A program made the position numbers and the translations under genes. Under the pieces are notes generated by a model, which had not been told where the DNA came from, ran no database searches, and worked only from the letters and a program-made list of their open reading frames with translations. Below, in pieces: positions 5,404 through 64,000 of a stretch of DNA of 64,000 nt (position 1 is the first letter of the stretch; every line of letters starts with the position of its first letter). This DNA is from Candidatus Omnitrophica bacterium UBA6253. Lineage in GTDB: Bacteria; Omnitrophota; Gorgyraeia; Gygaellales; Profunditerraquicolaceae. The DNA lies in the NCBI GenBank assembly GCA_002441245.1, contig DJVP01000008.1, positions 170,540 through 234,539 of the forward strand, written 5' to 3'.

Positions 5404-7743
5404 ATGAATGGATTATTTGTAATATTCAGGAAAAAGCTAGAAGAGACACACATTCGCAAGGAATTAAGAAGAATAAAAATGCGGATGATCTCTAATGGCG
5501 ATTTGAAGATTTGGCTTGATGATGCCAGTAGATTAAGGTTATTTTATAAAAATGTTGAATTAACCAAAGGTTATGGCTTAAGCTCTAGTATTTTATCCGA
5601 AGGGGTTTGGCACCATTCACATGAAACAGTTTTTGAAGCAGAGAAAATCTCCGAAAACCAGATGCGTATCTTTGTGTTTTTCCCGGGCATACCTATACAC
5701 CAGGAATGGTTGATAAAGATCGATTCTCGGGAGTCAATTAGTTATGAGGTTAACACAGAATTAATAGATAATATGCGGATAGATAATTTGAAAGCGGATT
5801 TTTTTATTTCAAAATCATATTTCCGTCGGGTATATAAATTAGAGGATGTAGTATTTCCACAGGAGTTCAATGCCTCTTGGAATATATTAAGCAATATGCC
5901 CAAAGATAACTTTATTGGCTGTACATCATTAAAGCCGGAGTACCCCAGTATATGTTTAGAATCTAGCAGTGGCGTTAAAAATTTATTTAGTGCAGGCAAT
6001 ACCGATTTCGTCTTGTCTTCCCGCGTACTTGAAGCCCAGATTGAAGAAATCGATGAATATCTCAAACCAGGGGTATATGAACATTTTAAAATCCATATAC
6101 AATTCTATCCGGATAAATCCGTGCTTGAAGATATGCTGGCTAAAATAAGAACTCAGAAGCAGCTTGAAGAGGAAAATCGAAAAAAAGGAGTGTTTGAGTA
6201 TTTCAAAAAAGAGCCGGCCGATCTTTTGTCGTGTAAAGAAGGCTGCATATATTTGTATGGAGATTCTGATCTTCTACATGATAAGATTAGCGGCGTACCA
6301 GGTGATTTTAACAAGATTATTGGAAAAATAAAAAAGATTGCGGGTAAGGGCTCATTTTATATCGGTGTATCGAGATATAATTTTTTCTGCCTGCATGTAA
6401 TTGCGCAGTATATTGCGGATATTATTGGCCAGCGCATTGATTTGCGTTCCCTTAATATAACTTTCTTGCCAGGCTGTAATCTTTACGCCAGCTTTGGTAT
6501 TTATTTGAATGAACTCACCCGGCGCTTAAGCCAGCATAAGATATATTTTTATCTAAAAGATACAGGTTTATTGGAGCTATTAGAAACTATATCCTCACAG
6601 GCTGATCAGTACAATGAAAGAGATCTATTGAGGCTGCTGGGGGTTATCGCGGAGCATCCTTTTATAGGCCCGCAGACGATAGTTCTGGATACGTATCATC
6701 AATGCAATACTGATTGTGTCCATTGCTGGATTCATACTCCTAGGCGTAAGAACCCCGGCCAGATAAGGGAGCTGGAAATGGATATCAATTTGTATAAACA
6801 GATCATAGATGATGCGGCAAAGATATTATGCGACGAGATTATCATCCAGGGCGATGGAGAACCTATGCTTGATGATAGGTTTATGGAGATGATCACTTAC
6901 GCCAGGAACAAAGGATTAAAAGTGCTCTTTTTTACAAACGGGATACTTTTAGATAAAAAGAAGGCGGCCGAGATAATCAATTTGGAGATAAATGAAATAT
7001 TCTGTAGCTTGCCCGCGGGTACGGCAAAGACATACGCCTTAATTAATTCAAAACAGTCTGAAAATTCATTTAGTCTAATTGAAAAAAATCTCAAGAATCT
7101 TATTGGTATGCGCAATAATGCGGGTAGAAGTAAACCTTTATTACAAATGACGCATGTTATACATAATTTAAACTACCATGAAATAGAAGAGATGGCCAGG
7201 TTTGATGCCTCTATTGGGGCAGATAAGGTAAGGTTCTATTTGGTAAGGCTGGACAATAATATTAAACCCTTGAAATTAAAATCCAGCCATATCAAAAGTA
7301 TCCAGGAATCCTTGGAACGCATAGAACCTTTTCTTAAAGCCAAAGGTATAGAGTTACAAGATAATATTCATTTTCAGCTTCAGCATTATAATCCAGAAAG
7401 CGGGGATTGGTCTGGGGAAACCTTTTCTAATATGGGTTGCCCGGTAGGGTGGTTTTTTTCGTTAGCATTATTCAAAGGAGAAGTAAGTATGTGTTGTCAT
7501 CTGCGCATAGTTGATATTTTAAAAGAAAAAAGTTTTGCGCAAATCTGGGATTCTGTTCGCTACAATGAAGTCCGAATTTATGCGAAATATCTGAATAAAC
7601 ATAAGAATGAACATTTTTTAAACGGAAGGAAGTTATTCGATGACTCTTGTCGGCATTGCGATACGCATCAGGTTATTCTAAGGATTAACCAGCTTATGAA
7701 CAAATATCACCTGGACAAATTTTATCAAGAGAGTTTTTTATGA
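5404..7743 (+). CDS. radical SAM protein with C-terminal Cys-rich (SPASM/twitch-like) region and ~420-aa N-terminal extension
   Basis: 779 aa. rSAM triad CNTDCVHCW at about residue 440. C-terminal cysteine clusters (MGCPVGW, MCCHLR, CRHCDTHQ). The N-terminus carries the ELTKG module (KIWLDDASRLRLFYKNVELTKGYG). Paralogous to the 33568 gene. Confidence 0.8.
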   Translation: MNGLFVIFRKKLEETHIRKELRRIKMRMISNGDLKIWLDDASRLRLFYKNVELTKGYGLSSSILSEGVWHHSHETVFEAEKISENQMRIFVFFPGIPIHQEWLIKIDSRESISYEVNTELIDNMRIDNLKADFFISKSYFRRVYKLEDVVFPQEFNASWNILSNMPKDNFIGCTSLKPEYPSICLESSSGVKNLFSAGNTDFVLSSRVLEAQIEEIDEYLKPGVYEHFKIHIQFYPDKSVLEDMLAKIRTQKQLEEENRKKGVFEYFKKEPADLLSCKEGCIYLYGDSDLLHDKISGVPGDFNKIIGKIKKIAGKGSFYIGVSRYNFFCLHVIAQYIADIIGQRIDLRSLNITFLPGCNLYASFGIYLNELTRRLSQHKIYFYLKDTGLLELLETISSQADQYNERDLLRLLGVIAEHPFIGPQTIVLDTYHQCNTDCVHCWIHTPRRKNPGQIRELEMDINLYKQIIDDAAKILCDEIIIQGDGEPMLDDRFMEMITYARNKGLKVLFFTNGILLDKKKAAEIINLEINEIFCSLPAGTAKTYALINSKQSENSFSLIEKNLKNLIGMRNNAGRSKPLLQMTHVIHNLNYHEIEEMARFDASIGADKVRFYLVRLDNNIKPLKLKSSHIKSIQESLERIEPFLKAKGIELQDNIHFQLQHYNPESGDWSGETFSNMGCPVGWFFSLALFKGEVSMCCHLRIVDILKEKSFAQIWDSVRYNEVRIYAKYLNKHKNEHFLNGRKLFDDSCRHCDTHQVILRINQLMNKYHLDKFYQESFL

Positions 7744-9926
7744 GAATAGCACTTGTTAATCTGCCCTGGTACAATTTATGCAGATCGGGTGTAAGGGCCG
7801 GGTCGCGCTGGCCACATTTGATGGCCCGGCATGAACGGGGTTATCTTCCCTACCCTTTTTTCCTGGCTTATGCAGCGGCATTATTAAAAGAGAATAATTT
7901 TGAAGTGATCTTGATTGATGCCATAGCCGAAGGTCTTTCTTACACCGTCTGCATCAACAGGTTGCGTAGCCTTAAATGCGATCTCTATGTTTTTGAAACA
8001 TCAACTGTAACCCTAAAGCATGATATCGGGCTCATAAAAAAAATAAACAAACATACCCCCGTAGTTATGTGCGGACCGGATGTAAATATACAAAAACCCT
8101 CTTTTATAAAGAATTATCCGTTTATTACTTATGTTATTTCTGGTGAATATGAATTAACTCTTTTGGATTTAGCCCGGCACATAAAGGATAAGAGAGGCTT
8201 AAGCGATGTCCCTGGGCTCATTTACCGTCTTGGAAGCAAAATAACTGTTAACCCATTGCGTGAACTCGCTGATCTAGATAAGCTTCCCTGGCCTTTACGG
8301 GAAGGCCTTCATATGACAAATTATAATGATGCTCCCGGTAATATGCCGCTTCCTTCGGTTCAGATGGTTGCCAGCCGGGGATGTCCTTATAGGTGCAAGT
8401 TTTGTCTTTGGCCGCAGGTGATGTATCAGGGGAACAATTACAGGTCTAGGGATGTTAAGGATGTAATAAAAGAAATGAAGTTTTTGGTGAACAATATGGG
8501 GTTTAAATCCGTATATTTTGATGATGATACATTTAATTGCGGCAAGCCCAGAATGCTTGCTTTTTGCGATGAGATTAAGAAGCAAGATTTGACAGATACC
8601 CCCTGGGCGATCATGGCCCGTCCTGACCTTATGGATGAGGAAATACTAATGAGGATGAAAGAGGCGGGGTTATATGCCGTTAAATATGGGGTTGAGTCGG
8701 CTACCCAGAGTTTACTTGATGGCATCAACAAAAATATGGATCTTAAGAAAACAGAGAAAATGATCCGTTTTACAGAGCAGCTTGGGATTAAAACTCATCT
8801 TACGTTTACATTTGGTCTACCGGGAGAGACAAGAGAGAGCATACGCAGGAGCATTAATTTCGCAATTTACCTTAATCCTGACTCTGTACAATTCTCCATA
8901 GCTACTCCGTTCCCGGGAACGGAATTTTACCGGGAAATTGAGACAAGTGGACTTCTTCTTACAAAGGAATGGTCAGAGTATGATGGTAACAATAAGAGCG
9001 TTATTTGTTCCGACAATTTAAGTAAAAAAGAATTAGAACAAAGTATCCGTGTTGCTTATGGCCGATGGCGCAACCATTATTTAAACAGGCGGTATCTTAA
9101 GGGGCAAAGGCTGAATATTTCTCTGCCCGGACTGGTTTTATTTTCTTTAAAAAGACGCGGAATATTTTTGACAGCAATAAAGCTGTTAAGTTTTTCATGC
9201 CTTCAGATTAAGGCACTTGTTTTAATAAGAATAAATCGGCTTATGGATATTTTTAAAAGAAGCTCTGGGCATCTAAATTCTATAGCTATGGGCAGGGTGG
9301 GGCTATTTTTTGACCACTCAGGAATACGCCTTTTTTGGGAGAATAAAGAACTTACCAGAGAAGATGGTTTTAGAAGTTGTAATGGTTTGCCAGAAGGCAA
9401 GAAAATAAAAAGCGGCGCATTTACGTTTGGGGATTTTAAGAAAGAGGCGGACAACCAGATTTCATTAAGGAAAAGATACGCCGATTCTGATATTGAAGAG
9501 GATTGGAAATTTGAGATCATTGATGAAAAGCAGATTGATTGGAGCGTTAAAGTACATAATAGGCATGGCGGTATAACTTCCGGCGAGTCAAGGCTTGCGC
9601 TTATTTTATCAGATGAATATCAAAAATGGTTAGATTCATGGGGGGAGGGCGGTTTTTATTCTGTTTTTGATAATCTTGAAGTTGAATTAAGAAACCCAAA
9701 AACAAAAATGGTTGGCGTGAGGGGGAGGAAAAAATTGACAAGGGAAATTCCGACTATACTATTAGATGCTGCTTCTAATAACGGTATAACTGCTTGTATA
9801 CGGAATAGCCCTGTTTTAGGGGCACGCATATTAGAGGTTAGACAGGCAGGGGATATTTTCTCCGCCCGGATAAAAATCGTAGAAGAAGGTTTTAATAAGC
9901 GCAAAAGACGCCCCGGGCCATTATAA
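7740..9926 (+). CDS. class B (B12-binding domain) radical SAM protein with ~250-aa C-terminal extension
   Basis: 728 aa. N-terminal Rossmann-like B12-binding region (MRIALVNLPWYN...EVILIDA). rSAM motif SRGCPYRCKFCLWP. The C-terminal extension contains GLFFDHSGIRLFWENKELTRE and DWKFEIIDEK modules. ATGA overlap with the upstream gene. Confidence 0.8.
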   Translation: MRIALVNLPWYNLCRSGVRAGSRWPHLMARHERGYLPYPFFLAYAAALLKENNFEVILIDAIAEGLSYTVCINRLRSLKCDLYVFETSTVTLKHDIGLIKKINKHTPVVMCGPDVNIQKPSFIKNYPFITYVISGEYELTLLDLARHIKDKRGLSDVPGLIYRLGSKITVNPLRELADLDKLPWPLREGLHMTNYNDAPGNMPLPSVQMVASRGCPYRCKFCLWPQVMYQGNNYRSRDVKDVIKEMKFLVNNMGFKSVYFDDDTFNCGKPRMLAFCDEIKKQDLTDTPWAIMARPDLMDEEILMRMKEAGLYAVKYGVESATQSLLDGINKNMDLKKTEKMIRFTEQLGIKTHLTFTFGLPGETRESIRRSINFAIYLNPDSVQFSIATPFPGTEFYREIETSGLLLTKEWSEYDGNNKSVICSDNLSKKELEQSIRVAYGRWRNHYLNRRYLKGQRLNISLPGLVLFSLKRRGIFLTAIKLLSFSCLQIKALVLIRINRLMDIFKRSSGHLNSIAMGRVGLFFDHSGIRLFWENKELTREDGFRSCNGLPEGKKIKSGAFTFGDFKKEADNQISLRKRYADSDIEEDWKFEIIDEKQIDWSVKVHNRHGGITSGESRLALILSDEYQKWLDSWGEGGFYSVFDNLEVELRNPKTKMVGVRGRKKLTREIPTILLDAASNNGITACIRNSPVLGARILEVRQAGDIFSARIKIVEEGFNKRKRRPGPL

Positions 9927-9938: not shown

Positions 9939-11189
9939 ATGCGAAGTATATTTATACATCCTTTTAAAAGAACTTTTTCCAGGTATCTGGACACTCTGGG
10001 TGTTCTAGACGGTTCTTTTGCTTACAAGGGGCCTGGTTCTGTCCAAATAGACCTGACAAATAACTGCAATAATAATTGCATAGGATGTTGGTGTAATTCC
10101 CCTCTTTTGGGTGAAAAAGAGATTTCACCCGACGTAAAAAATCAAACTCTTCCCTATGGGCGGGTGATCGCCCTGATAGATGAATTATATCGTATGGGCA
10201 CGCGCCATATCTATTATGCCGGAGGAGGGGAGCCTTTTATGCACCCGCAGATTATGGAAATAATCAGACACACTAAGAAGCGGGGATTAGAATGCTATAT
10301 TAACACAAATTTTACCTTGATTGATGAAAAGAGGGCCAAGAAGCTCGCGGAAGAAGGAGTAGATTCGTTGACCGTGAGTATTTGGGCCGGAACTGCCGGC
10401 ATGTATGCCTTGACACACCCCAGCAAAAACGAAGGGACTTTCCTGAAGATTAAAGAGACGCTGCAGTATCTTAATGCGGTCAAGAAAAAGCATCCTTTCG
10501 TAAAGATTTATAATGTCATCTTTAATAAGAATTATCATGAGTTAAGGACTATGGTTGAATTTGCATTAAATACTCGTGCGGAAGCCGTGGAATTTACCGT
10601 AATCGATACGATTCCGGGAAAGACAGATTCTTTGCTTTTAAATAATTCGGAAAAACAGGCTTTGCTTGAAAGTTGCTTCGGGATAAATAAGCAATATGAG
10701 AATAATGGACTGGCGGATAAGATAAAGCTGCTTAATTTTGAGCAATTCATGCGCAGGATTTCAAGCAGTGGCTCAAAATCCGCGGAGTATGACTCGGATG
10801 TCATTGGCAAAATCCCCTGTTATGCCGGGTGGGCTTTTGTCAGGATATTAGCGGATGGCAATGTTAATTCCTGCTTAAAATCCCACAGATTTCCGGTAGG
10901 CAATATTTTTAAGGAAGACTTTGGATCTATATGGAATAATAGCCTGCAGAGGCTGTTTAGGGAGAAAACATTTAAGATGGATAAAGATGATCCTTTTTTT
11001 TCCCTGATTGGCAATGATCCTGATTCTAGAATGGGGTGCTTTAAGAGCTGTGATAATATGGGGCATAATATGGACCTGCATGGCAGGTTTGTTTCTTTGA
11101 GCCCGGTAGAGCACAGGATATTAACCGGTATTAGTGGCATGGTAAAACGGGCGCGAGGAACAAAACTTAAGCAGGAAAGGAGCAACTAA
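9939..11189 (+). CDS. radical SAM protein with C-terminal auxiliary Cys cluster region
   Basis: 416 aa. CNNNCIGCW triad, GGGEPF motif, C-terminal cysteines (CYAGW, NSC, CFKSCDN). Core related to the 5404 and 33568 genes. Confidence 0.75.
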   Translation: MRSIFIHPFKRTFSRYLDTLGVLDGSFAYKGPGSVQIDLTNNCNNNCIGCWCNSPLLGEKEISPDVKNQTLPYGRVIALIDELYRMGTRHIYYAGGGEPFMHPQIMEIIRHTKKRGLECYINTNFTLIDEKRAKKLAEEGVDSLTVSIWAGTAGMYALTHPSKNEGTFLKIKETLQYLNAVKKKHPFVKIYNVIFNKNYHELRTMVEFALNTRAEAVEFTVIDTIPGKTDSLLLNNSEKQALLESCFGINKQYENNGLADKIKLLNFEQFMRRISSSGSKSAEYDSDVIGKIPCYAGWAFVRILADGNVNSCLKSHRFPVGNIFKEDFGSIWNNSLQRLFREKTFKMDKDDPFFSLIGNDPDSRMGCFKSCDNMGHNMDLHGRFVSLSPVEHRILTGISGMVKRARGTKLKQERSN

Positions 11190-11310: not shown

Positions 11311-12432
11311 TTGGAGGCAATTCAGCAGATAGCTAGTTTTGTTGAATTTTATATGCGTTCATTACAATATATCAAAGAGATTGGAAGTATTGTAAGGGGA
11401 GAAGTAAGGGCGTTATTCCCTGTATTCTCTAGGCCTGCCTGTATGCCTCCTGATTTTGTTTGTATTGGTATTACAGACGCCTGCATGCTTAGATGTAAGA
11501 TGTGCCAGAAATGGAAAGAAGATATTTTTATAAAAGACAAAACAGGTGAGCCTGCAGTTGAAGATTGGAAGCGTGCTATTTCTTCGTTGCATAAGCTTAC
11601 TGTTAAACCATTGCAAATAAATTTCGGCGGAGGAGAACCGCTTTTAAAAAAAGAGATCTTTGAGTTGGTCAGTTTTTGCAAACAAAACGGGTTAAAAACT
11701 AATATTGCTACCAATGGCTATCTTATAAACAAGGAAATGGCTAAACAAATAGCTGATTCCGGTTTGGATAGTATTATTATTTCTCTGGATAGCCTTTGCG
11801 AAGATACCCATGATTACTTGCGGGGTAAAAACGGCACATACAGGCAGGTGATGAATGCTTTGGAGTTGCTTGATAAATCCTGCGAAGGGCTTTATAAGGG
11901 TTTATGTTGTGTTATTTATCAGAAAAATATGGAAGATGTTTTAGGATTAGAGGCTTGGGCAGAAAAGGATCAGCGGATTAACTCGGTCTATTTTATGGCA
12001 GCTATGCAGCCTAATAACACAGCGCCCGATATGCGCTGGTATGAAAAAGAAGAATTCCAGGCACTCTGGCCAAAAGACCCTGTCCGGGTAGGTGCGATTA
12101 TCGATGAACTTATAAAAATAAAAAGAGGCAGGTCGAAGATCACCAACCAGATATCTCAGCTGGAGGCGTTTAAGCATTACTATAAGCAACCTGACCGCTT
12201 TGTTAAGAGTTCCCAATGTAATATGGGTGCGGCGCTGCATTTTAGCTCTTCGGGGGATATTTTTCTCTGTTACCGGTGGCAAGTTTTAGGTAATGTAAAA
12301 ACCGATGACGTTGCCTCTGTCTGGAATTCCCGCTTGGCCAAAGAAGCGCGGTTTGATATAGCAGCCTGTAAGGATAACTGTCATTTTTTGCTTAATTGTT
12401 TTTTTAAAGAAGGATACTCTTTTAAAATATAA
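11311..12432 (+). CDS. radical SAM/SPASM-type protein, tandem paralog 1 of 11
   Basis: CMLRCKMCQKW triad, FGGGEPLL, SLDS, C-terminal NCHFLLNCFF. Start uncertain: TTG at 11311, or ATG at 11353. Confidence 0.8.
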   Translation: MEAIQQIASFVEFYMRSLQYIKEIGSIVRGEVRALFPVFSRPACMPPDFVCIGITDACMLRCKMCQKWKEDIFIKDKTGEPAVEDWKRAISSLHKLTVKPLQINFGGGEPLLKKEIFELVSFCKQNGLKTNIATNGYLINKEMAKQIADSGLDSIIISLDSLCEDTHDYLRGKNGTYRQVMNALELLDKSCEGLYKGLCCVIYQKNMEDVLGLEAWAEKDQRINSVYFMAAMQPNNTAPDMRWYEKEEFQALWPKDPVRVGAIIDELIKIKRGRSKITNQISQLEAFKHYYKQPDRFVKSSQCNMGAALHFSSSGDIFLCYRWQVLGNVKTDDVASVWNSRLAKEARFDIAACKDNCHFLLNCFFKEGYSFKI

Positions 12433-12471
12433 CCGGGACGGATGCGCTATTAGGATAAGAAAGGAATCATT

Positions 12472-13518
12472 ATGCAAAGCAGCTTAGATAAAAGATTTGA
12501 TTTAAAGAATAATCCTGGTTTTTTAAAGCCAGGTTTCTGTTGTATCGGCATTGTTGATACCTGCATGTTAGAGTGTAAGATGTGCCAGAAATGGAAGGAT
12601 GATCCTGGCACAAAGGGCATTTCTCAACCGACAACAGATCAATGGAAGATTTTTATCAGCCAATTGCGTGATTTGGTAGATGAGGGTTTTGAAATTGATT
12701 TTGGCGGCGGAGAAGCATTAATGAGACCGGATCTTTTAGAGCTGGTCTCTTATGCAAAGGGTCTGGGGTTTAGAAACGCGATAGCTTCCAATGGCTACCT
12801 GATTAATGACGAGATGGCCAAAAGGATAGTAGATTCTGGTTTAGACAGCATAGTTTTATCTCTGGATAGTTTAAAACCTGAAATTCATGATAGTATGCGT
12901 GGCAAAAAAGGCGTTACCGAAAGGGTTTTTAAGGCCATTGAATACCTAAGAAAATATTCAAAAGATATACACATAGGGATATGCACAATAATTATGGAGC
13001 AAAGCTTGGACGGTATTATTGATTTGGCGGAATGGGTAAATACAAATAGGGATAAGATGAATTCTATTTTGTTTATGGCTCCCATGCAACAGAATAATAC
13101 ACCTTGCGATCTGGAATGGTTTAAGAAAGCTGAATATAATTTTATCTGGCCAAAAAACAGTAAAAAGGTTCAGGATGTCCTTGATGAACTAATCAGGCGC
13201 AGAAAACTGGGCCACTGGATAGGTGATTCTATCCCGCAGTTAGAGGCCTTTAAATTATATTTTCAGAATCCCGCTAAATTCGTAAAAAATAACCCGTGTA
13301 ATTTAGATAGAGCCGTGCATGCCAGTTCAATTGGAGATATATATTTATGCTACCGCTATGGCGTGCTTGGCAATATTAAGAATGGAGATGATCTCAGGCA
13401 GATATGGAACTCGCAGGTGGCCAGTAAAGTCAGAGGCGAAGTAAGGCAGTGCGATGATAATTGTCATTTTCTACTCAACTGTTTTTTTGAGGGTGATTAC
13501 CCTTTTGGCGTGAAATAA
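12472..13518 (+). CDS. radical SAM/SPASM-type protein, tandem paralog 2
   Basis: CMLECKMCQKW, FGGGEAL, NCHFLLNCFF. SD AAGGAA upstream. Shares an identical 23-nt stretch with paralog 1. Confidence 0.85.
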   Translation: MQSSLDKRFDLKNNPGFLKPGFCCIGIVDTCMLECKMCQKWKDDPGTKGISQPTTDQWKIFISQLRDLVDEGFEIDFGGGEALMRPDLLELVSYAKGLGFRNAIASNGYLINDEMAKRIVDSGLDSIVLSLDSLKPEIHDSMRGKKGVTERVFKAIEYLRKYSKDIHIGICTIIMEQSLDGIIDLAEWVNTNRDKMNSILFMAPMQQNNTPCDLEWFKKAEYNFIWPKNSKKVQDVLDELIRRRKLGHWIGDSIPQLEAFKLYFQNPAKFVKNNPCNLDRAVHASSIGDIYLCYRYGVLGNIKNGDDLRQIWNSQVASKVRGEVRQCDDNCHFLLNCFFEGDYPFGVK

Positions 13519-14522: not shown

Positions 14523-14523
14523 C

Positions 14524-15570: not shown

Positions 15571-15579
15571 CCAACCATT

Positions 15580-17884: not shown

Positions 17885-17901
17885 TTAATTTGCGATTTTA
17901 C

Positions 17902-19179: not shown

Positions 19180-19250
19180 GGTGGAATAAGCAGTATATTA
19201 TATCCGATTATTTTTATGCAGCTGGTTTTGTAATACGGGAGGAGGATAGG

Positions 19251-20249: not shown

Positions 20250-20312
20250 TCATCCAGGGTTTAATTAATATGGGATTTTATATGCATGATATTTATAACT
20301 TGAGAGGATGGA

Positions 20313-23017: not shown

Positions 23018-23020
23018 CCG

Positions 23021-45812: not shown

Positions 45813-45818
45813 TAAAGA

Positions 45819-56235: not shown

Positions 56236-58015
56236 ATACAAATTTCTATATAAAACTTGTTTAATCCTGTTGGTTTTGTTCAGCCTGTATATTTGCTTTT
56301 GGAAGTTAGGGGTTTCCAGTTTTTATGATTTGAATGAGGCTTATCTTGTTCAATTAAGCAAAGATTTTTCAGAAAACATAAATTTAGCCAATCCGGCCGG
56401 TAGCGCAACCTTTGCTCGCCTTTACGATCCCCTGCCGGTTTTTTTAACTAACTTATCATTTAAAATATTCGGCGAATCGGAGTCTTCAGCGAGATTCTTC
56501 CCGGCATTCTTTGGCTTCCTAACTATTTTACTAACTTTTATATTTGCAAAATCTATATACAGAAATAAAACCGTTGCCTTATTCTGCGCGTTTATACTTG
56601 TCACAAGCTATCAATTTATTTTTAACCGGGGTATCAGGTCTGCGGATGGGTATGCGATACCTGTTTTCTTTATGTTAACTTTCATATTTTTAATATGGAG
56701 AAGCCGCCAAGATGTGAAGTTTTTTTACTTATCAGCAATTCCTCTGGGGCTTTTAGGCTTATCTATAACCTTTGGTTTAATTTTTATATTAGGCTTGTTT
56801 ATTATTTTATTATTTCAGTCTTTGGATAGGAGATTCTTTGGTTTGAAACAATGGGGGATATGGCTATTGTTATTAATAGTAACTATAAGCCCTTGGATAG
56901 CATATCTGTTAATAAGTAAGCAGTATCTGAATTATTTTAATTTTTATTTCAATTTTATTGTATCCAATATTGCCCGGATAAAGATATTCGGCTTGGGGTT
57001 CCTGCAGGAATTTATTTCATTGGATAAATTTGATTTAGCCGCCTCCGATCATTATAATCCTTTAATACTTTGGAATGTGCTAAAATTCGGATTGTTCCCC
57101 TGGAGTATTATGCTTATACCTTCCTTTGTGTTTTTATTTATACGTTTATTCAAAACAAAAGAATACCCTCCGGCAGACAAATTAATTTTTTCCTGGATAC
57201 TGCCGACAATCATAATGATTATGGCAATTACGATATTTACCAGGTCATGGTGGATAAATATTCTATGTCCCGCTTTGGCAATAGTGGTAGGTAAATTTAT
57301 TTATGATTTTGTTTGGGGTTTTCGTAAAAATACTGCTATTTCATTTCTTTTATCCTCATGGTTTATTGCAATGCTCATAGTAACTCAGCCATTGCAGTTA
57401 CATCAGGTTGGGTATAATCCTGTCCCTTGGATGGAAAGCGGTTTGATATCAGGCAGCCTGCGATACAATGTCAGCAACCCCATATTCTGGATTTTTTGTT
57501 TAACTGTTGTTATATTCCTGATGCAGATAAGTTTTAAAAGATTAAATATGAAGTTCGCTAATAAATATATTTTTGTGCAAATATCAGCTGCGCTTTTTTT
57601 TGTAGTTTCCCTTGTTAATATTATCTATTTAGTTAATAATTCTCAAAATAAATCAGAAATGGATACTATTGGGAGCCTGATAAATAATGAGAAGGCTATA
57701 GCGCCAGGCAAAAAACTTATTTTATATAATATCGCTCTTTTGGGAGGTGCCTCTAGGTTAACTCCAGAGTTAAAAGAGCGTTGGAGTGATTACTATTATT
57801 TGAATAAGATAGGTATGCCCAAAGAGAAGATTAATGAAAATCTCCCGTTGATCCTTGAGTTGTTTAACAGCCACAAAGAAGATATCTGCTTGATGAAAAG
57901 AGAGGATTTCAATAATTTAATAAAGTTGAGGCAAAAAGAAGAAATGAAAATAAGTATTATCTGGATTGGTAATGAGTACGTGCTTTTAAATATGAACAGT
58001 AAATTAGCTATATAA
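56225..58015 (+). CDS. GT-C fold membrane glycosyltransferase (GT39/ArnT-like)
   Basis: Polytopic N-terminal region with an acidic first loop (YDLNEAY). More than 12 TM helices. About 150 aa soluble C-terminus. Confidence 0.65.
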   Translation: MVYKYKFLYKTCLILLVLFSLYICFWKLGVSSFYDLNEAYLVQLSKDFSENINLANPAGSATFARLYDPLPVFLTNLSFKIFGESESSARFFPAFFGFLTILLTFIFAKSIYRNKTVALFCAFILVTSYQFIFNRGIRSADGYAIPVFFMLTFIFLIWRSRQDVKFFYLSAIPLGLLGLSITFGLIFILGLFIILLFQSLDRRFFGLKQWGIWLLLLIVTISPWIAYLLISKQYLNYFNFYFNFIVSNIARIKIFGLGFLQEFISLDKFDLAASDHYNPLILWNVLKFGLFPWSIMLIPSFVFLFIRLFKTKEYPPADKLIFSWILPTIIMIMAITIFTRSWWINILCPALAIVVGKFIYDFVWGFRKNTAISFLLSSWFIAMLIVTQPLQLHQVGYNPVPWMESGLISGSLRYNVSNPIFWIFCLTVVIFLMQISFKRLNMKFANKYIFVQISAALFFVVSLVNIIYLVNNSQNKSEMDTIGSLINNEKAIAPGKKLILYNIALLGGASRLTPELKERWSDYYYLNKIGMPKEKINENLPLILELFNSHKEDICLMKREDFNNLIKLRQKEEMKISIIWIGNEYVLLNMNSKLAI

Positions 58016-59403
58016 TGTTTGTATCTTCGCCGGTTATTTTTATAAACCCTCCGGGGCCAGCTAATCTTTACAGGAGCATGGTATGTGCTTTTGTTTCAAA
58101 GGCTAAATATATCTGGCAGCCTCATGATTTTATTAATCTGAGCGCCCAGATACCCGCAGAATACAAACTTAGATTAATAGATTGCAGTATAAATAATTAT
58201 GAAGCTGATTATGTTTTTGATGAAATAGGCATTTCGCACCCAGGTTTATGTGTAGCTGCTATCTCTAGTATTTTATTTAATGAAGACCTGATTTTTCTTA
58301 AAAAGCTCAAATCAAGATTTCCGGGTCTAAAATTACTGGTAATCGGCAATATCCTGCTGGAGAAATATTTCAGGAAGCAGGTTTTGGAGTATGCCGATGG
58401 TTTGATTTTGAATTCTCTGGATGTAGATCTGTGCTCATATATAAAAAATGGTACGACTAATTCGAAAAACTTGATACTTAAAGACGGATCTCCCGGTGAT
58501 TCCGGCGGATCTAATGACAAGGTTTCGCTAAAGAAGGTCTCTATCGGTATCCCGAGGCATTCCTTATTTTTAAATAAGCGGTATCGTTTCCCGTTTGCAA
58601 AATCATATTTGTATAGCGCGGTTACTACTCAATTCGGATGCCCTTTTCAGTGTGCTTATTGCTCATGGGCAAAGATTCCGGTATCGTACAGGGATTATAC
58701 AGAGGTTCTCGAAGAGTTGAAATTAGCGACAAGCTTAGGCATAAAAAACATTTTTTTTACTGACCCCAGTTTTGGGTTCCCAAAGAAGAATGCCTTTGCG
58801 CTTGCAGAGGGTATTATAAAAATAAAATTGGGTATTAAGTGGTCTTGTTATGCAAATCCGTTATTATTAGATAAAGAGTTCTTAAGTTTAATGAAAAAGG
58901 CAGGGTGTCACACATTAATTACTGGCATAGATGATGGTGATTTTGATATGTTGCGCCAGGAGTTCAATAGGGATGTGCCTGAAGCAAAAATAATAGAGTT
59001 TTGCAATATTTGCCATGATCTAGGCATGCAGGTTTGTGGAGATTTTATTATCGGCCTTAACCAAGCCAATGAATCTTGTCAGCGCATTATTAATATTGCC
59101 AAAAAACTCGATTTAGATTATGCGTCTTTTAATATATTTTCTATCCTGGTTGGTTCTCTGGTAAGGGAAAAGCTGATAAAAGAATGCAAGTTTAGCCCCT
59201 GCGGTGCGAGCCTTGACCCCAGCGGCAATAGCGGGCAAATAGACAAGAGACTGGTCCATTTGAGGAATTTAGCCGTGAGAAAATTCTATATGCGGCCAAG
59301 ATACCTTTTAAAACGTATGATGAAAATAAAAAGTTTTAACGAATTTGTGATACAATTTGAGGAGATGATAGGGCTTTTCAGCAAACTAAGGAATGTTAAA
59401 TGA
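58015..59403 (+). CDS. radical SAM protein with degenerate B12-binding-like N-terminal domain
   Basis: rSAM motif QFGCPFQCAYCSWA. N-terminal Rossmann-like region of about 200 aa. TAATG overlap with the upstream gene. Confidence 0.7.
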   Translation: MFVSSPVIFINPPGPANLYRSMVCAFVSKAKYIWQPHDFINLSAQIPAEYKLRLIDCSINNYEADYVFDEIGISHPGLCVAAISSILFNEDLIFLKKLKSRFPGLKLLVIGNILLEKYFRKQVLEYADGLILNSLDVDLCSYIKNGTTNSKNLILKDGSPGDSGGSNDKVSLKKVSIGIPRHSLFLNKRYRFPFAKSYLYSAVTTQFGCPFQCAYCSWAKIPVSYRDYTEVLEELKLATSLGIKNIFFTDPSFGFPKKNAFALAEGIIKIKLGIKWSCYANPLLLDKEFLSLMKKAGCHTLITGIDDGDFDMLRQEFNRDVPEAKIIEFCNICHDLGMQVCGDFIIGLNQANESCQRIINIAKKLDLDYASFNIFSILVGSLVREKLIKECKFSPCGASLDPSGNSGQIDKRLVHLRNLAVRKFYMRPRYLLKRMMKIKSFNEFVIQFEEMIGLFSKLRNVK

Positions 59404-60455
59404 GGCCTGATAAACAGCTAAAACAATGGATATTTGCCGCTAGGATATTCGGTAAAGGGCTTACTTGGCACGATTATTTAAAAATAACCAGGTATATATT
59501 TTTAAAACGTATTTTGCAAAAAAATATTCCCGTCTCAGCGGTTTTTGCTATTACATACAGATGCCAATGCAACTGCGTGCATTGTTCGGTAGGGGCATAT
59601 AAAAGCAAACCGGATGAGGAATTGACTACCCGGGAAATCAAGAATGCCATTAATGCATTATCCAAATTATGGATATTCAAGATTACGTTTTTTGGAGGGG
59701 AGCCTTTGTTGAGGGAAGACCTGTTTGAATTATTGAATTATGCCGGTTCGCTTAGAATGCGCGTTTCGATAGATACTAATGGTTTAGCCTTAACCCCTGA
59801 GGTTGTTAAGAAGTTAAAATTGGCCAAAATAGCGAATGTGAATATAAGTTTGGATAGTCCTGACCCGGATATTCATGATAAGCTAAGAGGGGTGCCCGGA
59901 TGTTTTGAGCGGGCAATCAGCGGTATTAAGCTTTGCGTAGCAGCAGGCATTCCCTGTCTAGTATCGACTTATGCCTCGAAAAGGGCTATAGCTAACGGTG
60001 ATATGAAGAAGTTAATCAGCCTTTCCCGGTCACTTGGCGCCTCCGGAGTTAAAATCCTTTTGCCTATTATTTCTGGTAAATGGCTTGGGAGCATGGAAGA
60101 GAAACTTTCTTTGCAGGAAGAAGAGGAGGTCAGGAAGTTACTTGATCCTTTGTTCGTCTACATAGAGGATGCCTTGTCAATGCTGCGAAACTCATCAAAG
60201 AGATGCTCAAGTTTAGATAAGAACTTTTTTTATATATCTCCATTCGGAGATATACAGCTCTGCCCTGCCGTACCGTTATCCTTTGGCAATATAAGGCATC
60301 ACGATCTCAGCAGCATTGTAAAAAAAATGTGGGCTCATCCGACAAGCAATATAAAGTGCGAGGGCTGTTTAATCAACAATAAAGTATTCCGGGACAGGTA
60401 CTTTTCTAAAATAACCGAGAAAAATAACCTACCAATTTCCGCATATGAGGCTTAA
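59400..60455 (+). CDS. radical SAM protein with C-terminal auxiliary cluster (SPASM/twitch-like), Cys-rich triad CQCNCVHC
   Basis: ITYRCQCNCVHCSVG, FGGEPLL, C-terminal CPAV...CEGC. Confidence 0.75.
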   Translation: MRPDKQLKQWIFAARIFGKGLTWHDYLKITRYIFLKRILQKNIPVSAVFAITYRCQCNCVHCSVGAYKSKPDEELTTREIKNAINALSKLWIFKITFFGGEPLLREDLFELLNYAGSLRMRVSIDTNGLALTPEVVKKLKLAKIANVNISLDSPDPDIHDKLRGVPGCFERAISGIKLCVAAGIPCLVSTYASKRAIANGDMKKLISLSRSLGASGVKILLPIISGKWLGSMEEKLSLQEEEEVRKLLDPLFVYIEDALSMLRNSSKRCSSLDKNFFYISPFGDIQLCPAVPLSFGNIRHHDLSSIVKKMWAHPTSNIKCEGCLINNKVFRDRYFSKITEKNNLPISAYEA

Positions 60456-61476
60456 AAGTTACATAGAGCATCAATTCCTAATGTTAAAGATCTTTTTATC
60501 GGTATCGCCTCTGTCTTTATATCCCAGAATTATAATCAACGTGATAAAAAACGATATTTTGCGTTTATATTCTCCTTCTTCCGCAGTAATTGGCCTTACC
60601 TATTTATGCCAGTGTCAATGCGTTCATTGCTCGGCATCTTTATACAAGAAAGATACTAGAGGAGAATTGACTTTAGCAGAAATTAAAAAACTTTTAGATG
60701 AAATTAAAAGCCTTGGGGTGCCGCGCATAAATTTAAGCGGGGGAGAGGCTTTATTAAGAAAGGATATCTTCCAGATAATAAAATATGCCCGTAATAAATT
60801 TGTGACTGTCCTGGAAACTAACGGTCAACTTTTAGACGAAGAAAAGGCTGTGGAGCTGAAGGCCGAAGGTATTTCATGCGTAGCCGTGAGCATAGATAGT
60901 CATAAGCCAGAAATTCATGACAAGTTGAGAAACCTGGGAGGCTGTTTTAAAAAAGCCATAAGGGGAATATCTTATTGCTTAAGAAATAAAGTACCATGCT
61001 TGATTTCTACTTATATCACATCCGAGAGAAATAATCCTGACGATATTAATGGCATGATGGCTTTAGCCGGAGAGCTTAAGGTTTTAGCGGTAAGGATTAT
61101 CCCGCCAAGGCCGGTAGGCAGTTTTTCTTGCCATACAAGTTCCTTGTTAAGCAGTGGACAGGAGCAGTGTTTAACAAGAGACATAAACCATAGAATAGCG
61201 TATTTTAAAGGGATCCCCGCGCCCAAAAATTGCGGGATATTTACTAAGTCGACATTTTATATTTCACCTTATGGTGAAGTTCAGCCCTGTGCGTTCCTGC
61301 CTTTATCCTTCGGCAATATTAGAAGACGGCCTTTACGGGTAATATTAAATGAAATGTGGGACCATGAGATATTTAACTTTCCGGATAGAAATTGTCTTAT
61401 ATTGAATAAAGAGTTTCGTAAAAGATATATCCCGGAAGAAAAGAACAGTTTATTTCCCATCGAAATTGTTAAATAA
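60445..61476 (+). CDS. radical SAM protein, paralog of the 59400 gene
   Basis: LTYLCQCQCVHCSAS, SGGEALL, C-terminal CAFLPLSFGNI. Confidence 0.75.
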   Translation: MRLKSYIEHQFLMLKIFLSVSPLSLYPRIIINVIKNDILRLYSPSSAVIGLTYLCQCQCVHCSASLYKKDTRGELTLAEIKKLLDEIKSLGVPRINLSGGEALLRKDIFQIIKYARNKFVTVLETNGQLLDEEKAVELKAEGISCVAVSIDSHKPEIHDKLRNLGGCFKKAIRGISYCLRNKVPCLISTYITSERNNPDDINGMMALAGELKVLAVRIIPPRPVGSFSCHTSSLLSSGQEQCLTRDINHRIAYFKGIPAPKNCGIFTKSTFYISPYGEVQPCAFLPLSFGNIRRRPLRVILNEMWDHEIFNFPDRNCLILNKEFRKRYIPEEKNSLFPIEIVK

Positions 61477-61491: not shown

Positions 61492-63006
61492 ATGCATATT
61501 TGTTTTGTCCATAGCCATTATGAAAGCCTGGCCATAGAATACCTTTCCTCGATTTTAAGAAAAAACGGACATAAAACCAGCCTGATTTTTGATCCCGCAT
61601 TATTCCACAATTTCTTCTTGGACAAAAACTGCTTATCCAGGATATTTAATTTCAAAAATTATATATTGAGAAAAATTGAAAAGGATAGGCCTGATATGGT
61701 AGCCTTTTCTGTAATTTCGGATAACTACGGCTGGATTTTAGAAATATCAAAACAGATTAAATCCAAAATCAATGCTACCATTGTATTTGGAGGTATCCAC
61801 CCTACAGCTGTACCGGAGTATGTTTTAAATGACAGGGTGGCCGATTACATAGTCATTGGCGAAGGAGAACATGCTTTCTTGGATTTAGTAAATGCCCTTG
61901 ATAGAAAACAGAATGTAACCAATATTCAAAATATAGGCGGCTATAACGGCGGGAATATCTATATCAACCCGGTGCGTAAGCCAATAGCAGATTTAGATGC
62001 GTTGCCGTTTCCGGATAAGGATTTATTTTATGATCAGTGTAAGATGCTGGTTAAGGATAGCTACATGATCATGGGTAGCCGGGGATGTGCGAATAGCTGT
62101 AGTTATTGCTGGAATAGTACGATTCATAAGATTTATGGCGGCAATATTTATTATAGGAGGAGAAGCCCGGTTAATGTAATAGAAGAATTAAAATGGGCAA
62201 TAGACAAATATAAAATTAAAAAAGTAACGTTTTATGATGAAGTTTTTACTTCCGATAAAAAATGGCTTATTGAATTCTTAGGTTTGTATAAAGAAAATGT
62301 CGCCCTTCCTTATTTCTGCTGCGTTCACCCCAGGGATATAGATAAGAAAATAGTTAATCTGCTTTCGGATTCCGGTTGTGCGGCATTGAATATAGGAATC
62401 CAGACTGCCAATGAAATTACCAGGGTTAATATATTGAATAGGCCGGGTCCTAACCAGCAAATAATCGATGCATTGAGAGCTTTAAGGGGGACAAAAATAT
62501 TTGTTTATTCTAATATTATATTAGGTTTACCTAATGAGGCAGAAAGCGATCTTATTGCAACCTTGTCATTCTGTAATTCTTATAAAGCCGATTTGCCGGC
62601 AATTTACTGGTTACGTTATTACCCCGGGACAAGAATAGTCGAGATAGCCAGGAATAAATTGTTTATAACAGAAGATGAAGTTGCAAAGATAAACGAAAGC
62701 AAAGATTATTCCCCCTATGCCATATCAGGAAGCACTTATTGTAAGGATGCCGCGCGTATCGGCAATCTTATATTATTAAGCGGGGTTATACCCAAAACAA
62801 TCATGGATCGCTTAATCAGATCCCGTATCTACAGGTTTATGCCATCGGTAAATTTACTTTTTCCGGTAATCATATTTATGAGTTACCTGAAGGTTATTTT
62901 AGAGGGTAAGCGTTGCCCATTCCATTATTTCGGCCTGTTTACTTATTTAAAATATCACCTCTTTTATATATACAAAAAAATGTTTTGTTATTTGGGTATT
63001 TATTAG
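61492..63006 (+). CDS. class B (B12-binding) radical SAM protein
   Basis: Paralog of the 53849 gene (MHICFVHSHYESLAIEYLSSIL). rSAM motif SRGCANSCSYCWNS. Confidence 0.8.
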   Translation: MHICFVHSHYESLAIEYLSSILRKNGHKTSLIFDPALFHNFFLDKNCLSRIFNFKNYILRKIEKDRPDMVAFSVISDNYGWILEISKQIKSKINATIVFGGIHPTAVPEYVLNDRVADYIVIGEGEHAFLDLVNALDRKQNVTNIQNIGGYNGGNIYINPVRKPIADLDALPFPDKDLFYDQCKMLVKDSYMIMGSRGCANSCSYCWNSTIHKIYGGNIYYRRRSPVNVIEELKWAIDKYKIKKVTFYDEVFTSDKKWLIEFLGLYKENVALPYFCCVHPRDIDKKIVNLLSDSGCAALNIGIQTANEITRVNILNRPGPNQQIIDALRALRGTKIFVYSNIILGLPNEAESDLIATLSFCNSYKADLPAIYWLRYYPGTRIVEIARNKLFITEDEVAKINESKDYSPYAISGSTYCKDAARIGNLILLSGVIPKTIMDRLIRSRIYRFMPSVNLLFPVIIFMSYLKVILEGKRCPFHYFGLFTYLKYHLFYIYKKMFCYLGIY

Positions 63007-63014
63007 GGGCATCC

Positions 63015-64000
63015 ATGGCAAAAATATTATTCATCAGCGATAACTATCTTAATGAAAGCCTGGGCATTATGTGTCTAAGCGCTTATTTAAAAACCAGGAG
63101 CCACCAGGTGGATATCGCTTTGTTATCGGAATATAAAAGAATAGGTGACCTTTTAAGATTTATCCAGGGGGCTGCTTGTGACATTATAGGTTTTTCAGTT
63201 ATGACCCCGCAGGTATCTGCCTTCCGGCACGTATCCAAGATAATTAAAGAGACAACCCATCATAAAATTATCTGGGGTGGTCCGCATTGCACTTTGATGT
63301 CGGATGAAATTTCAGAAGGCGGCTACGTCGATATTATTTGTATCGGAGAGGGGGAGGAGCCGCTATTAGAACTTATGAACCGGATCGATGAGCGCAAAGA
63401 GTTTGATGATATAGCGAATCTTAGGATAAAGAAAAAAAACGGATGGGTAAATAATGAGCTTTGTAACTTGGAATCCGATTTAGATAGGTATCCATTCCCG
63501 GACAGGGCATTATATTATGACAAATATCCGTTTTTGCGCAATTTTGTTTTAAAGAGATTTGTTACTATGCGCGGCTGCCCTTATGATTGTTTTTACTGTT
63601 TTGCGCCTAACTTTAAAGAGATATATAAGGGCAAAGGGGAGTTAGTCCGCCGGCACAGTGCTGAATATATAATTGCCGAGATAAAATCTGTTATTTCTAG
63701 ATACCCAATCAAGATACTTCATTTTTCCGATGATACATTTAATGCGGACAAAGATTGGGTGATGAATTTCCTGGTAAGTTATAAAAAAATATCAGCTTGC
63801 CATTTACCTGTAATATTTCTGTTGTGGGGATTGACGAGGAAATGATAGGCGGCATGAAGGATGCAGGGTGTAGTGGGGTAACCTTTGGTCTGGAAAGCGG
63901 ATTAGAAGATATACGCTTCAACGTTTTGAATAAAAAATTCAAAAATGTTGATTTTATCGAAACATCGCGCCTGCTTCACAAACACAAAATAAGATTTGTA
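63015..64000 (+). CDS. class B (B12-binding) radical SAM protein, 3'-partial, interrupted by apparent frameshift in an A7 tract at 63783-63789
   Basis: MAKILFISDNY...MRGCPYDCFYCFAP. The frame ends at 63845, but homology to the 53849 and 61492 paralogs (..LPFTCNISVVGIDEEMIGGMKDAGCSGVTFGLESG) continues in a different frame, which would be restored by one extra A in the A7 run. Either a pseudogene or a homopolymer sequencing error. Confidence 0.65.

Follow-up and report, generated by a model that had tools for sequence, protein, structure and literature searches.

The 64,000-nucleotide (nt) stretch of Candidatus Omnitrophica bacterium UBA6253 analysed here (GenBank assembly GCA_002441245.1, contig DJVP01000008.1, positions 170,540 to 234,539; hereafter the window) carries a locus in which genes for radical S-adenosylmethionine (SAM), or rSAM, enzymes stand among those of a glycan assembly and export pathway. 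This locus is probably a radical tailoring battery coupled to ATP-binding cassette (ABC) transporter-dependent glycan export in an uncultured Candidatus Omnitrophota bacterium, with a chemistry that we infer. The argument rests chiefly on a unit of ~240 amino acids (aa), predicted to adopt a galactose mutarotase-like fold, that is shared between the Wzt ATPase of the exporter, rSAM enzymes, and a glycosyltransferase.

Among the 48 open reading frames (ORFs) of at least 150 aa in the window, 47 of them on the plus strand, Pfam hmmscan places the Radical_SAM domain (PF04055) above its gathering score of 29.5 bits in exactly 25, lying between positions 5404 and 63845 and scoring 33–93 bits, which is the number counted by a model that had seen the letters alone (the sequence-only reading). 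These ORFs start at 5404, 7740, 9939, 11311, 12472, 14524, 15580, 19251, 20313, 21362, 23021, 23973, 24971, 25971, 27366, 30234, 33568, 40976, 48030, 53849, 58015, 59400, 60445, 61492, and 62913, and at a generous rSAM background of 3–5% the binomial tail for 25 of 48 is 1e-25 to 3e-20. Both a CxxxCxxC triad and a GG(E/D)P motif had been ascribed to all 25. The exact Cx3Cx2C triad is present in 24, the class B enzyme 30234 having CTYAQCTFC (Cx4Cx2C rather than the canonical spacing) and still scoring 88.8 bits for PF04055, and GG[ED]P is exact in only 10, with GGEA in four more and the class B-like proteins lacking GG[ED]P. The trio of CxxxCxxCW enzymes described in the sequence-only reading, here termed W-type (CNTDCVHCW in 5404, CNNNCIGCW in 9939, and CNTKCQHCW in 33568), and its pair with a CQC(N/Q)CVHC triad (59400 and 60445) were both found, whilst the placement of the cysteine triads in an rSAM-fold context is borne out by the Pfam domains and by a model of ORF 24971 that matches rSAM/SPASM-Twitch structures. 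The SPASM domain (PF13186) exceeds its cutoff in 14 ORFs, with 33568 at 20.3 bits lying just under the cutoff of 21.5. Nine of the enzymes are class B-like, as proposed, however the B12-binding domain expected in each is matched (PF02310) in seven: it precedes the rSAM domain, above cutoff, in 30234, 40976, 48030, 53849, 61492, and 62913, and reaches 28.2 bits in 7740, below the cutoff of 32.1. ORFs 21362 and 58015 are without a PF02310 match, and are class B-like only through homology to the others and their best NCBIfam matches. A hydropathy scan predicts no membrane segment in the rSAM proteins.

All-against-all BLAST reveals weak similarity between the tail of Wzt, the N-terminus of the rSAM enzyme 5404, the C-terminus of the class B enzyme 7740, and the C-terminus of the GT-C glycosyltransferase 36615, with the ~240-aa unit present in three copies in Wzt and one in each of the other three proteins. 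The unit is without a Pfam match, and Wzt matches nothing beyond its ATPase domain at E ≤ 1e-3, including Wzt_C (PF14524). A hidden Markov model built from the Wzt units alone detects the unit in 5404, 7740, and 36615 with independent E-values of 3e-28, 4e-23, and 2e-26 respectively. A structural model of the unit, made from a 24-row alignment of the units of 16 Wzt orthologs (predicted local distance difference test score (pLDDT) 88, predicted template modelling score 0.87), matches solved members of the galactose mutarotase-like (supersandwich) fold, suggesting a fold typical of carbohydrate enzymes. The unit is rare, with an exhaustive profile search returning 647 proteins at E ≤ 1e-3 among 1.84 billion representatives; a word-indexed homolog search with a six-copy alignment of the shared 145-aa core returned one protein only and was uninformative, whilst the Wzt-tail and exhaustive profile searches succeeded. 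The best 150 of the 647 proteins include 88 Wzt-type ATPases with 2–7 units, 10 GT-C enzymes, and ~10 W-type or class B rSAM enzymes (8 of them W-type). Furthermore, two of the 88 Wzt-type proteins, P0137 (1856 aa) and P0216 (1217 aa), combine an ABC_tran domain, units, and a C-terminal Radical_SAM/SPASM region in one polypeptide, as confirmed by Pfam, and the fused rSAM type is that of the immediate downstream neighbour of Wzt in the window, 5404. We regard the sharing of the unit and the Wzt–rSAM fusions as the best support for an action of the rSAM enzymes on the cargo of Wzm/Wzt.

In related loci the unit is distributed as in the window. The order Wzm, long Wzt, W-type rSAM, class B rSAM, rSAM/SPASM, and paralog array recurs in the loci L021 and L026, whose Wzt or paralog proteins are merely ~42% identical to those of the window. 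A smaller locus outside the Omnitrophota-labelled set (L025, 10001-21398) comprises Wzm, a Wzt bearing a single unit at its C-terminus, two GT4 glycosyltransferases, a B12-rSAM enzyme, two further GT4, a second B12-rSAM enzyme, and a GT-C enzyme, with its Wzt protein labelled Ca. Schekmanbacteria by NCBI.

Eleven of the rSAM genes form a tandem SPASM-type family, as the sequence-only reading had held, extending from 11311 to 28340 with mutual identities of 29–46%. PF13186 is matched in ten of them; the eleventh paralog, 25971, keeps the SAM-cluster triad, has lost four of five C-terminal Cys residues, and has gained a TPR tail, so it may serve as a scaffold or work by another mechanism. Ten paralogs retain the triad, located at residues 16–58 in the family, and five auxiliary Cys residues arranged C-terminally as C-x17-C...C-x3-C-x5-C, frequently joined by an N-terminal Cys. 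Canonical SPASM domains contain seven Cys residues, including a CX2CX5CX3C motif, and the five-Cys pattern seen in the paralog sequences fits at least one auxiliary cluster of a Twitch-like or abridged SPASM type. AlphaFold modelling of a single representative, 24971, from an alignment of 56 sequences gave a model with a pLDDT of 91.5, which Foldseek matches to SkfB, BlsE, SuiB, CteB, MoaA, anSME, DesII, PqqE, BtrN, viperin, and ChlB, the match to the sugar decarboxylase BlsE being full-length (TM 0.69/0.70). On these matches 24971 is predicted to be a SPASM/Twitch enzyme, with neighbours that act on peptides and sugars about equally. A scan with 24971 of one genome per GTDB species locates related loci mainly in Omnitrophota metagenome-assembled genomes (MAGs), with 10–14 paralogs in a row, and protein homologs are named only 'radical SAM protein'. 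Three of the related loci (L014 15062-17122, L015 7738-9939, and L017 1910-4099) contain double-length ORFs of 686–733 aa, each scoring as a fusion of two members of the tandem family. The last of these loci, contig CAZEKF010000003.1, contains 11 tandem paralogs and a W-type rSAM gene and is labelled 'uncultured Methanosarcinales archaeon'; it may be a mis-binned Omnitrophota contig or a case of gene transfer.

The structural neighbours of 24971 also bear on an alternative in which the rSAM/SPASM battery matures a ribosomal peptide or protein, akin to a ribosomally synthesised and post-translationally modified peptide (RiPP) or a glycoprotein, with the glycosylation genes merely decorating the product. 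SkfB, CteB, SuiB, anSME, PqqE, and ChlB are among the top neighbours of the model, the sub-threshold NCBIfam matches include sactipeptide and ranthipeptide maturases, and one paralog bears the TPR tail; additionally, PMT_2-type GT-C enzymes can glycosylate proteins. The maturase matches are, however, all far under their cutoffs, no PqqD or RiPP recognition element (RRE) domain is matched by Pfam in any of the 48 ORFs, and an N-terminal RRE would have no room in the paralogs because of the position of their triad. The intergenic gaps are few and without a plausible precursor ORF, the 48 ORFs include no leader peptidase or peptide exporter, with Wzm/Wzt the sole transporter, and fusions join rSAM enzymes to a fold of the carbohydrate-enzyme type and, among relatives, to Wzt. 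With precursor, RRE, and peptide exporter all not found, the RiPP reading was rejected, and we regard maturation of a peptide or protein as very unlikely.

The paralogs of the window have reciprocal-best, collinear orthologs in L013 at 75–95% identity (the exceptions being 25971 at 41%, 27366 at 59%, and 19251 without one), and in L014, L015, and L020 at 54–76%, so that the comparison of neighbourhoods across metagenomic bins proposed in the sequence-only reading does yield collinear related arrays. One-to-one orthologs at 54–95% identity, compared with 29–46% between paralogs, indicate that the duplications are old and that each copy has been retained, and the keeping of each old duplicate argues for distinct roles of the paralogs. 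Assemblies do differ within the locus. The last class B gene, 62913, is split by a 1-nt indel into 276 and 208 aa in the window and in a Logan contig, compared with an intact 484 aa in the NCBI MAG GCA_028718365.1, which is either strain variation or an assembly error. The W-type enzyme 5404 has one unit and 779 aa in the window (5404-6174), and two units and 1084 aa, with an additional 897 nt, in GCA_028718365.1 (L010 14956-18210); identical repeats of 177 nt lie on both sides of the extra segment, within which a perfect 51-nt tandem repeat (3.4 copies) encodes a linker rich in E, K, and R. Tandem Repeats Finder reports no tandem repeat in the window.

These differences would be expected if the locus were a variable surface-antigen cassette, its paralogs being alternative or partly decayed options used by strain or phase, with few real modifications on any one glycan. 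The loss of auxiliary-cluster Cys residues from 25971 points the same way, and polysaccharide cassettes have been reported as hypervariable regions of Omnitrophota genomes (10.64898/2026.06.07.730766). The collinear orthologs in several MAGs speak instead for long-term retention of the whole set, as do the intact triad in 24 of 25 enzymes and the full complement of five auxiliary Cys residues in ten paralogs, and the window is without invertible-promoter-like repeats or recombinase genes. We consider a cassette of this kind unlikely.

A further alternative, that the radical enzymes tailor a lipid or glycolipid (hopanoid-like, ladderane-like, a membrane-spanning lipid, or a lipid anchor) rather than sugars, arises from the NCBIfam scan, which covered 20 of the rSAM genes. 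The best sub-threshold matches are generic, namely AhbD, NirJ, GeoRSP, and tungsten-enzyme maturase for the SPASM types, and HpnJ, BchE, ApyD, PhpK, and also AprD4 for the class B enzymes, with several class B genes having as their best matches HpnJ, HpnR, or the 'lipid biosynthesis B12-binding/radical SAM protein' of ladderane-type clusters. The tetraether synthase Tes is matched by several paralogs, and three genes belong to the GDSL 'lipase' family. All of these lipid-family scores lie far below the curated cutoffs: HpnJ (TIGR03471) at best 249 bits (7740) and 215 bits (30234) against 577.6, the ladderane-type model (TIGR04072) at 101–124 bits against 360, and Tes at 29–65 bits against 450. 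Hopanoid genes were not found in the locus, and genes for fatty-acid, polyketide, isoprenoid, or glycerolipid synthesis are absent among the 48 ORFs and flanks. HpnJ, moreover, works on a portion of its substrate that derives from a sugar, GDSL/SGNH proteins also commonly serve as O-acyl enzymes of glycans, and the shared unit has a predicted fold of a kind characteristic of carbohydrate enzymes. With no lipid-synthesis gene found and the lipid-family scores sub-threshold, the lipid reading was rejected, and we consider it improbable, if somewhat less so than the two alternatives above. Of the 'surface glycoconjugate or lipid' that had been proposed as the product, the evidence thus favours the glycan and not the lipid, given the unit shared by Wzt, rSAM, and GT-C proteins and the Wzt–rSAM fusions.

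Several observations weigh against a glycan-tailoring battery and temper the confidence placed in it. We know of no Omnitrophota glycan with a known product structure. None of the 20 rSAM genes scanned reaches a curated NCBIfam cutoff, so that reaction types are not transferable by homology, and peptide maturases (SkfB, SuiB, CteB, anSME, and PqqE) are as numerous as sugar enzymes among the solved neighbours of the 24971 model. Binding of glycan by the mutarotase-like unit is suggested by its modelled fold and its fusion partners alone, and the supersandwich matches include non-carbohydrate contexts, for example a domain of YidC, a viral capsid protein, and an NDH subunit. The unit of GT-C 36615 is probably periplasmic and the other units cytoplasmic, which would fit a single glycan being bound in both compartments. 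Lastly, the 62913 frameshift and the copy-number difference of the 5404 unit imply that individual genes may be non-functional in some strains.

The genes that accompany the rSAM enzymes are those of an ABC-transporter-dependent pathway, all parts of which are matched (PF00953, PF01061, PF00005, GT2, and GT4): a WecA/MraY-family transferase, Wzm, Wzt, two GT2, two GT4, and four GT-C (PMT_2) glycosyltransferases, and one short-chain dehydrogenase/reductase (SDR), in agreement with the families assigned from the letters alone and now confirmed by Pfam. No flippase or polymerase family (Wzx, Wzy) is matched by Pfam among the 48 ORFs. Three GDSL/SGNH proteins, three U32-like proteins, a DUF362 protein, an FAD oxidoreductase, and a SAM methyltransferase are also encoded in the window, the features of which are as follows.

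152-234, plus strand: tRNA-Leu(GAG) (ARAGORN; Rfam RF00005), directly upstream of the wecA-like gene and flanking the locus.
449-1339, plus strand: WecA/MraY-family polyprenyl-phosphate HexNAc-1-P transferase, the putative initiator (PF00953, 106 bits; NCBIfam WecA 90 bits, under the cutoff of 326), with ~10 hydrophobic segments.
1780-2559, plus strand: Wzm, ABC-2 permease (PF01061, 55.9 bits).
2561-5395, plus strand: Wzt ATPase, 944 aa, with an N-terminal ABC domain (PF00005) and three mutarotase-like units, each ~240 aa (nt 3203-3952, 3935-4669, and 4655-5392).
5404-7743, plus strand: W-type rSAM/SPASM enzyme (PF04055, PF13186) with an N-terminal mutarotase-like unit (nt 5419-6129).
7740-9926, plus strand: class B rSAM enzyme (PF04055, weak PF02310) with a C-terminal mutarotase-like unit (nt 9219-9902).
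9939-11189, plus strand: W-type rSAM/SPASM enzyme, 416 aa (PF04055, PF13186, CNNNCIGCW).
11311-13518, plus strand: tandem paralogs 1 and 2 (11311-12432 and 12472-13518; PF04055, PF13186), 46% mutual identity.
13518-14522, plus strand: GDSL/SGNH hydrolase or acyltransferase (PF13472) with an N-terminal hydrophobic segment by hydropathy scan.
14524-16587, plus strand: tandem paralogs 3 and 4 (14524-15570 and 15580-16587; PF04055, PF13186).
16409-19179, plus strand: two GDSL/SGNH proteins (16409-17884 and 17890-19179; PF13472), 38% mutual identity, with N-terminal hydrophobic segments.
19251-21362, plus strand: tandem paralogs 5 and 6 (19251-20249 and 20313-21362; PF04055, PF13186).
21362-23017, plus strand: class B-like rSAM enzyme, 551 aa, without PF02310 (PF04055; sub-cutoff ApyD, PhpK, and BchE).
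23021-28340, plus strand: tandem paralogs 7 to 11 (23021, 23973, 24971, 25971, and 27366), assigned by Pfam, model, Cys conservation, and collinear orthologs.
28240-30171, plus strand: GT-C glycosyltransferase (PMT_2; PF13231), ~11 hydrophobic segments.
30234-31682, plus strand: class B rSAM enzyme, Cx4Cx2C (PF02310, PF04055).
31631-32374, plus strand: small GT2 of the ArnC-like polyprenyl-phosphate sugar synthase type (PF00535; undecaprenyl-phosphate L-Ara4FN transferase below cutoff).
32507-33496, plus strand: SDR nucleotide-sugar epimerase/dehydratase (PF01370, PF16363; dTDP-glucose 4,6-dehydratase below cutoff).
33568-35271, plus strand: W-type rSAM/SPASM enzyme, 46% identical to 5404, without the mutarotase-like unit.
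35402-36589, plus strand: GT4 glycosyltransferase (PF00534, PF13692).
36615-38933, plus strand: GT-C glycosyltransferase (PMT_2; PF13231) with a C-terminal mutarotase-like unit (nt 38265-38930).
39001-40973, plus strand: GT4 (39001-40116) and GT2 (40116-40973) glycosyltransferases.
40976-42538, plus strand: class B rSAM enzyme (PF02310, PF04055).
42535-48009, plus strand: DUF362 protein (42535), N-terminally anchored protein (43673), and three U32-like Cys-rich paralogs (44640, 45819, and 46987).
48030-49517, plus strand: class B rSAM enzyme (Pfam).
49573-50424, minus strand: PP-loop ATP-pyrophosphatase-like protein (YSGGTDST motif, weak DUF7411/QueC matches).
50865-52475, plus strand: GT-C glycosyltransferase (PMT_2; Pfam).
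52498-53847, plus strand: FAD/NAD-binding amine-oxidase-family oxidoreductase, PRK07208-like, with weak UDP-galactopyranose mutase similarity.
53849-55324, plus strand: class B rSAM enzyme (Pfam).
55354-56235, plus strand: class I SAM-dependent methyltransferase (Pfam).
56225-58015, plus strand: GT-C glycosyltransferase (PMT_2/PMT; Pfam).
58015-59403, plus strand: class B-like rSAM enzyme without PF02310 (Pfam, NCBIfam).
59400-61476, plus strand: two CQCxCVHC-type rSAM enzymes (59400-60455, and 60445-61476 with a SPASM match), sub-cutoff AhbD/NirJ-like.
61492-63006, plus strand: class B rSAM enzyme (Pfam).
62913-64000, plus strand: class B rSAM enzyme, frameshifted in the window, with the locus continuing past the window end.

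The longest ORF at 16409 overlaps the preceding paralog by 179 nt (16409-16587), so the true start of this GDSL gene probably lies downstream. N-terminal hydrophobic segments are found in the three GDSL/SGNH proteins, the DUF362 protein, and ORF 43673, those of the GDSL/SGNH proteins suggesting acyl modification outside the cytoplasm. The U32-like trio shows 33–36% mutual identity and matches PF01136 above cutoff, yet over ~65 of 233 profile positions, with TrhP at 35.9 against a cutoff of 534 and a match to the U32 protein 5d88 of the PDB at E 0.009; that these proteins are O2-independent hydroxylases like UbiU, UbiV, and TrhP is speculation by analogy. Together with the DUF362 protein and ORF 43673, the trio makes up a sub-module that may be a set for O2-independent hydroxylation. 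A carbamoyltransferase gene and an SxtJ-like gene lie between the wecA-like gene and wzm in L026 (5681-9193), and the downstream part of the window's own locus includes a 58-aa DUF5989 gene (L007 18003-18179); together, the carbamoyltransferase, SxtJ-like, and DUF5989 genes hint at O-carbamoylation of the glycan in some relatives.

The block had been described as co-directional throughout, which holds save for the minus-strand gene at 49573-50424; this gene divides the block into two co-directional parts and is followed by 440 nt of non-coding sequence. GC content is even across the window (0.33–0.41), plus-strand GC skew is positive throughout, and an Rfam scan of the window found tRNA only, with no cobalamin or SAM riboswitch. 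Exact protein matches place the window in the Candidatus Omnitrophota MAGs GCA_028712745.1 and GCA_028718365.1, and identical sequence is present in JGI, ENA, and Logan assemblies. An assembly artefact or chance was rejected, as these independent assemblies share the sequence and related arrays occur in other MAGs. Contigs of the same organism carry the locus past the window end, giving a block of ~75–80 kb with at least 32 rSAM genes; both figures are lower bounds, as the downstream end of the locus was not reached, with 6.9 kb added by one metagenome scan. Seven more rSAM genes, two GT2, a GT-C, two GDSL, and a polysaccharide deacetylase gene lie beyond the window on these contigs, following the intact class B gene in the order rSAM/SPASM, class B, polysaccharide deacetylase, GDSL, DUF5989 protein, two class B, GDSL, GT2, class B, rSAM/SPASM, GT2, rSAM/SPASM, and GT-C (truncated by the contig end). 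Upstream of the wecA-like gene, at a distance of 4 kb, there is one further rSAM gene; the upstream region of the same genome (L010) encodes a 759-aa spermine-synthase-like protein, a DsbD_2 protein, and an additional rSAM enzyme.

The domain content, fold predictions, domain sharing, fusions, and conservation across MAGs reported above are direct results, whilst the scheme that follows, including the binding of glycan by the units, the order of the steps, the reaction types, and a polymer rather than nucleotide sugars as the substrate, is conditional throughout. The WecA/MraY-family transferase would prime polyprenyl phosphate, upon which cytoplasmic GT4 and GT2 enzymes would assemble the chain, with the SDR, FAD enzyme, and SAM methyltransferase conditioning the sugars. 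Prior to export, the soluble cytoplasmic rSAM battery would make many different C-H functionalisations on the sugars, each enzyme having a separate position or residue. C-methylation or rearrangement of unactivated sugar carbons would be most likely for the class B (B12) enzymes, and oxidation, epimerisation, dehydration, or decarboxylation, by comparison with BtrN, DesII, and BlsE, for the eleven SPASM/Twitch paralogs and the W-type and CQC-type enzymes. The units on 5404, 7740, and GT-C 36615 would recruit those enzymes to the polymer, and the units of Wzt would couple export to the presence of the tailored structure, on the model of the carbohydrate-binding module in Wzt of E. coli O9a. The lipid-linked glycan would then be exported by Wzm/Wzt, and ArnC-like GT2 enzymes, the four GT-C enzymes, and the three anchored GDSL/SGNH enzymes would decorate it outside the cytoplasm.

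In its boldest form, this scheme becomes an assembly line of more than 30 rSAM enzymes that rewrites a surface polysaccharide at dozens of unactivated carbons and is physically coupled to Wzm/Wzt through the shared glycan-binding module, hitherto unrecognised, with the radical chemistry also providing the export signal; such a line would amount to the proteusin principle applied to a glycan. We hold this stronger version to be possible, yet doubtful. The reactions would comprise C-methylation, epimerisation, oxidation, and deoxygenation, to which the U32 trio might add O2-independent hydroxylation. The checkable parts of the sequence-only interpretation were all borne out; with the strictly anaerobic lifestyle that had been supposed, the rSAM, B12, and U32 content is no more than consistent.

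The superfamilies of all parts, and the pathway type, are already known. What appears new is the scale, with at least 32 rSAM genes in one locus compared with at most 13 in Elusimicrobia, the highest comparable count found in the literature, in keeping with the claim that the density exceeds that of known clusters. The proposed role of rSAM enzymes as the principal tailors of an exported glycan, the triple mutarotase-like tail on Wzt, and the sharing of this tail unit with, and its fusion to, rSAM and GT-C enzymes likewise appear to be new. A published description of the locus was not found, as expected of a system that had been called undescribed, in a searched literature that lacks most subscription papers and so leaves absence unproven. 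If the tailoring-battery reading is correct, rSAM tailoring would dominate the chemistry of a polymer at the cell surface. With its many diverged yet related SPASM/Twitch and B12-dependent enzymes, which probably act on carbohydrates, the locus is a rich source of new C-H functionalising biocatalysts, and it points to a substrate-recognition module of a new type in O-antigen-type ABC exporters, one common to the tailoring enzymes. Many Omnitrophota are ultrasmall and host-attached, and the locus predicts a chemically exotic, probably enzyme-resistant surface glycan, which bears on attachment to, or evasion of, the host.

Compared with known systems, the locus combines features that have been described separately. 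The groundwater Elusimicrobia clusters, with up to 13 rSAM genes beside group VI nitrogenase paralogs (10.1101/765248), likewise belong to an uncultured PVC-related anaerobe (Planctomycetes, Verrucomicrobia, and Chlamydiae) and have many rSAM genes, some with B12 domains; however, they lie beside NifHDK-like genes and have a predicted tetrapyrrole-type cofactor as product, whereas the window's locus is glycan-centred and without nitrogenase-like genes. A GT2 polyprenyl-phosphate glycosyltransferase, a flippase, and a GT-C enzyme form an established pathway of extracytoplasmic glycan decoration (PMC11127046). The small ArnC-like GT2 (31631, with others beyond the window) and the several PMT_2-type GT-C enzymes resemble such three-component systems, but a dedicated gene for a small flippase was not recognised, and one GT-C bears the mutarotase-like unit.

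In proteusin (polytheonamide-type) RiPPs, rSAM epimerases and B12-dependent C-methyltransferases act many times on one polymer. The proposed logic of the window's locus is alike, in that repeated radical epimerisation and C-methylation turn a genetically simple polymer into a chemically complex one; however, proteusins start from a leader-bearing ribosomal peptide and use few iterative enzymes, whereas the window's locus has a glycan context and many non-identical enzymes, with precursor and RRE not found. Tailoring of sugars by rSAM enzymes is known from a few antibiotic and hopanoid pathways, with one to four enzymes in each. BtrN, DesII, BlsE, AprD4, GenK, and HpnJ share with the enzymes described here an rSAM core with a Twitch/SPASM auxiliary region or an N-terminal B12 domain. 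Their pathways employ those few enzymes on small molecules, in contrast to at least 32 in a polymer export locus, where no equivalog cutoff is reached and some of the rSAM enzymes are fused to an exporter-type domain.

The WzmWzt, ABC-transporter-dependent O-polysaccharide pathway (PMC6379404 and PMC11231755), with its substrate-recognising Wzt, is a further close parallel. The E. coli O9a and Klebsiella O-polysaccharide prototypes have the same WecA-family initiator, cytoplasmic glycosyltransferases, and Wzm/Wzt without Wzx or Wzy, and a Wzt with a C-terminal extension separate from the ATPase. In the prototypes this extension is a single ~150-aa Wzt_C jelly-roll, and tailoring is confined to one terminating methyltransferase/kinase. 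In the window, by contrast, Wzt carries three ~240-aa mutarotase-like units that are also found on rSAM and GT-C enzymes, and tailoring would fall to dozens of rSAM enzymes.

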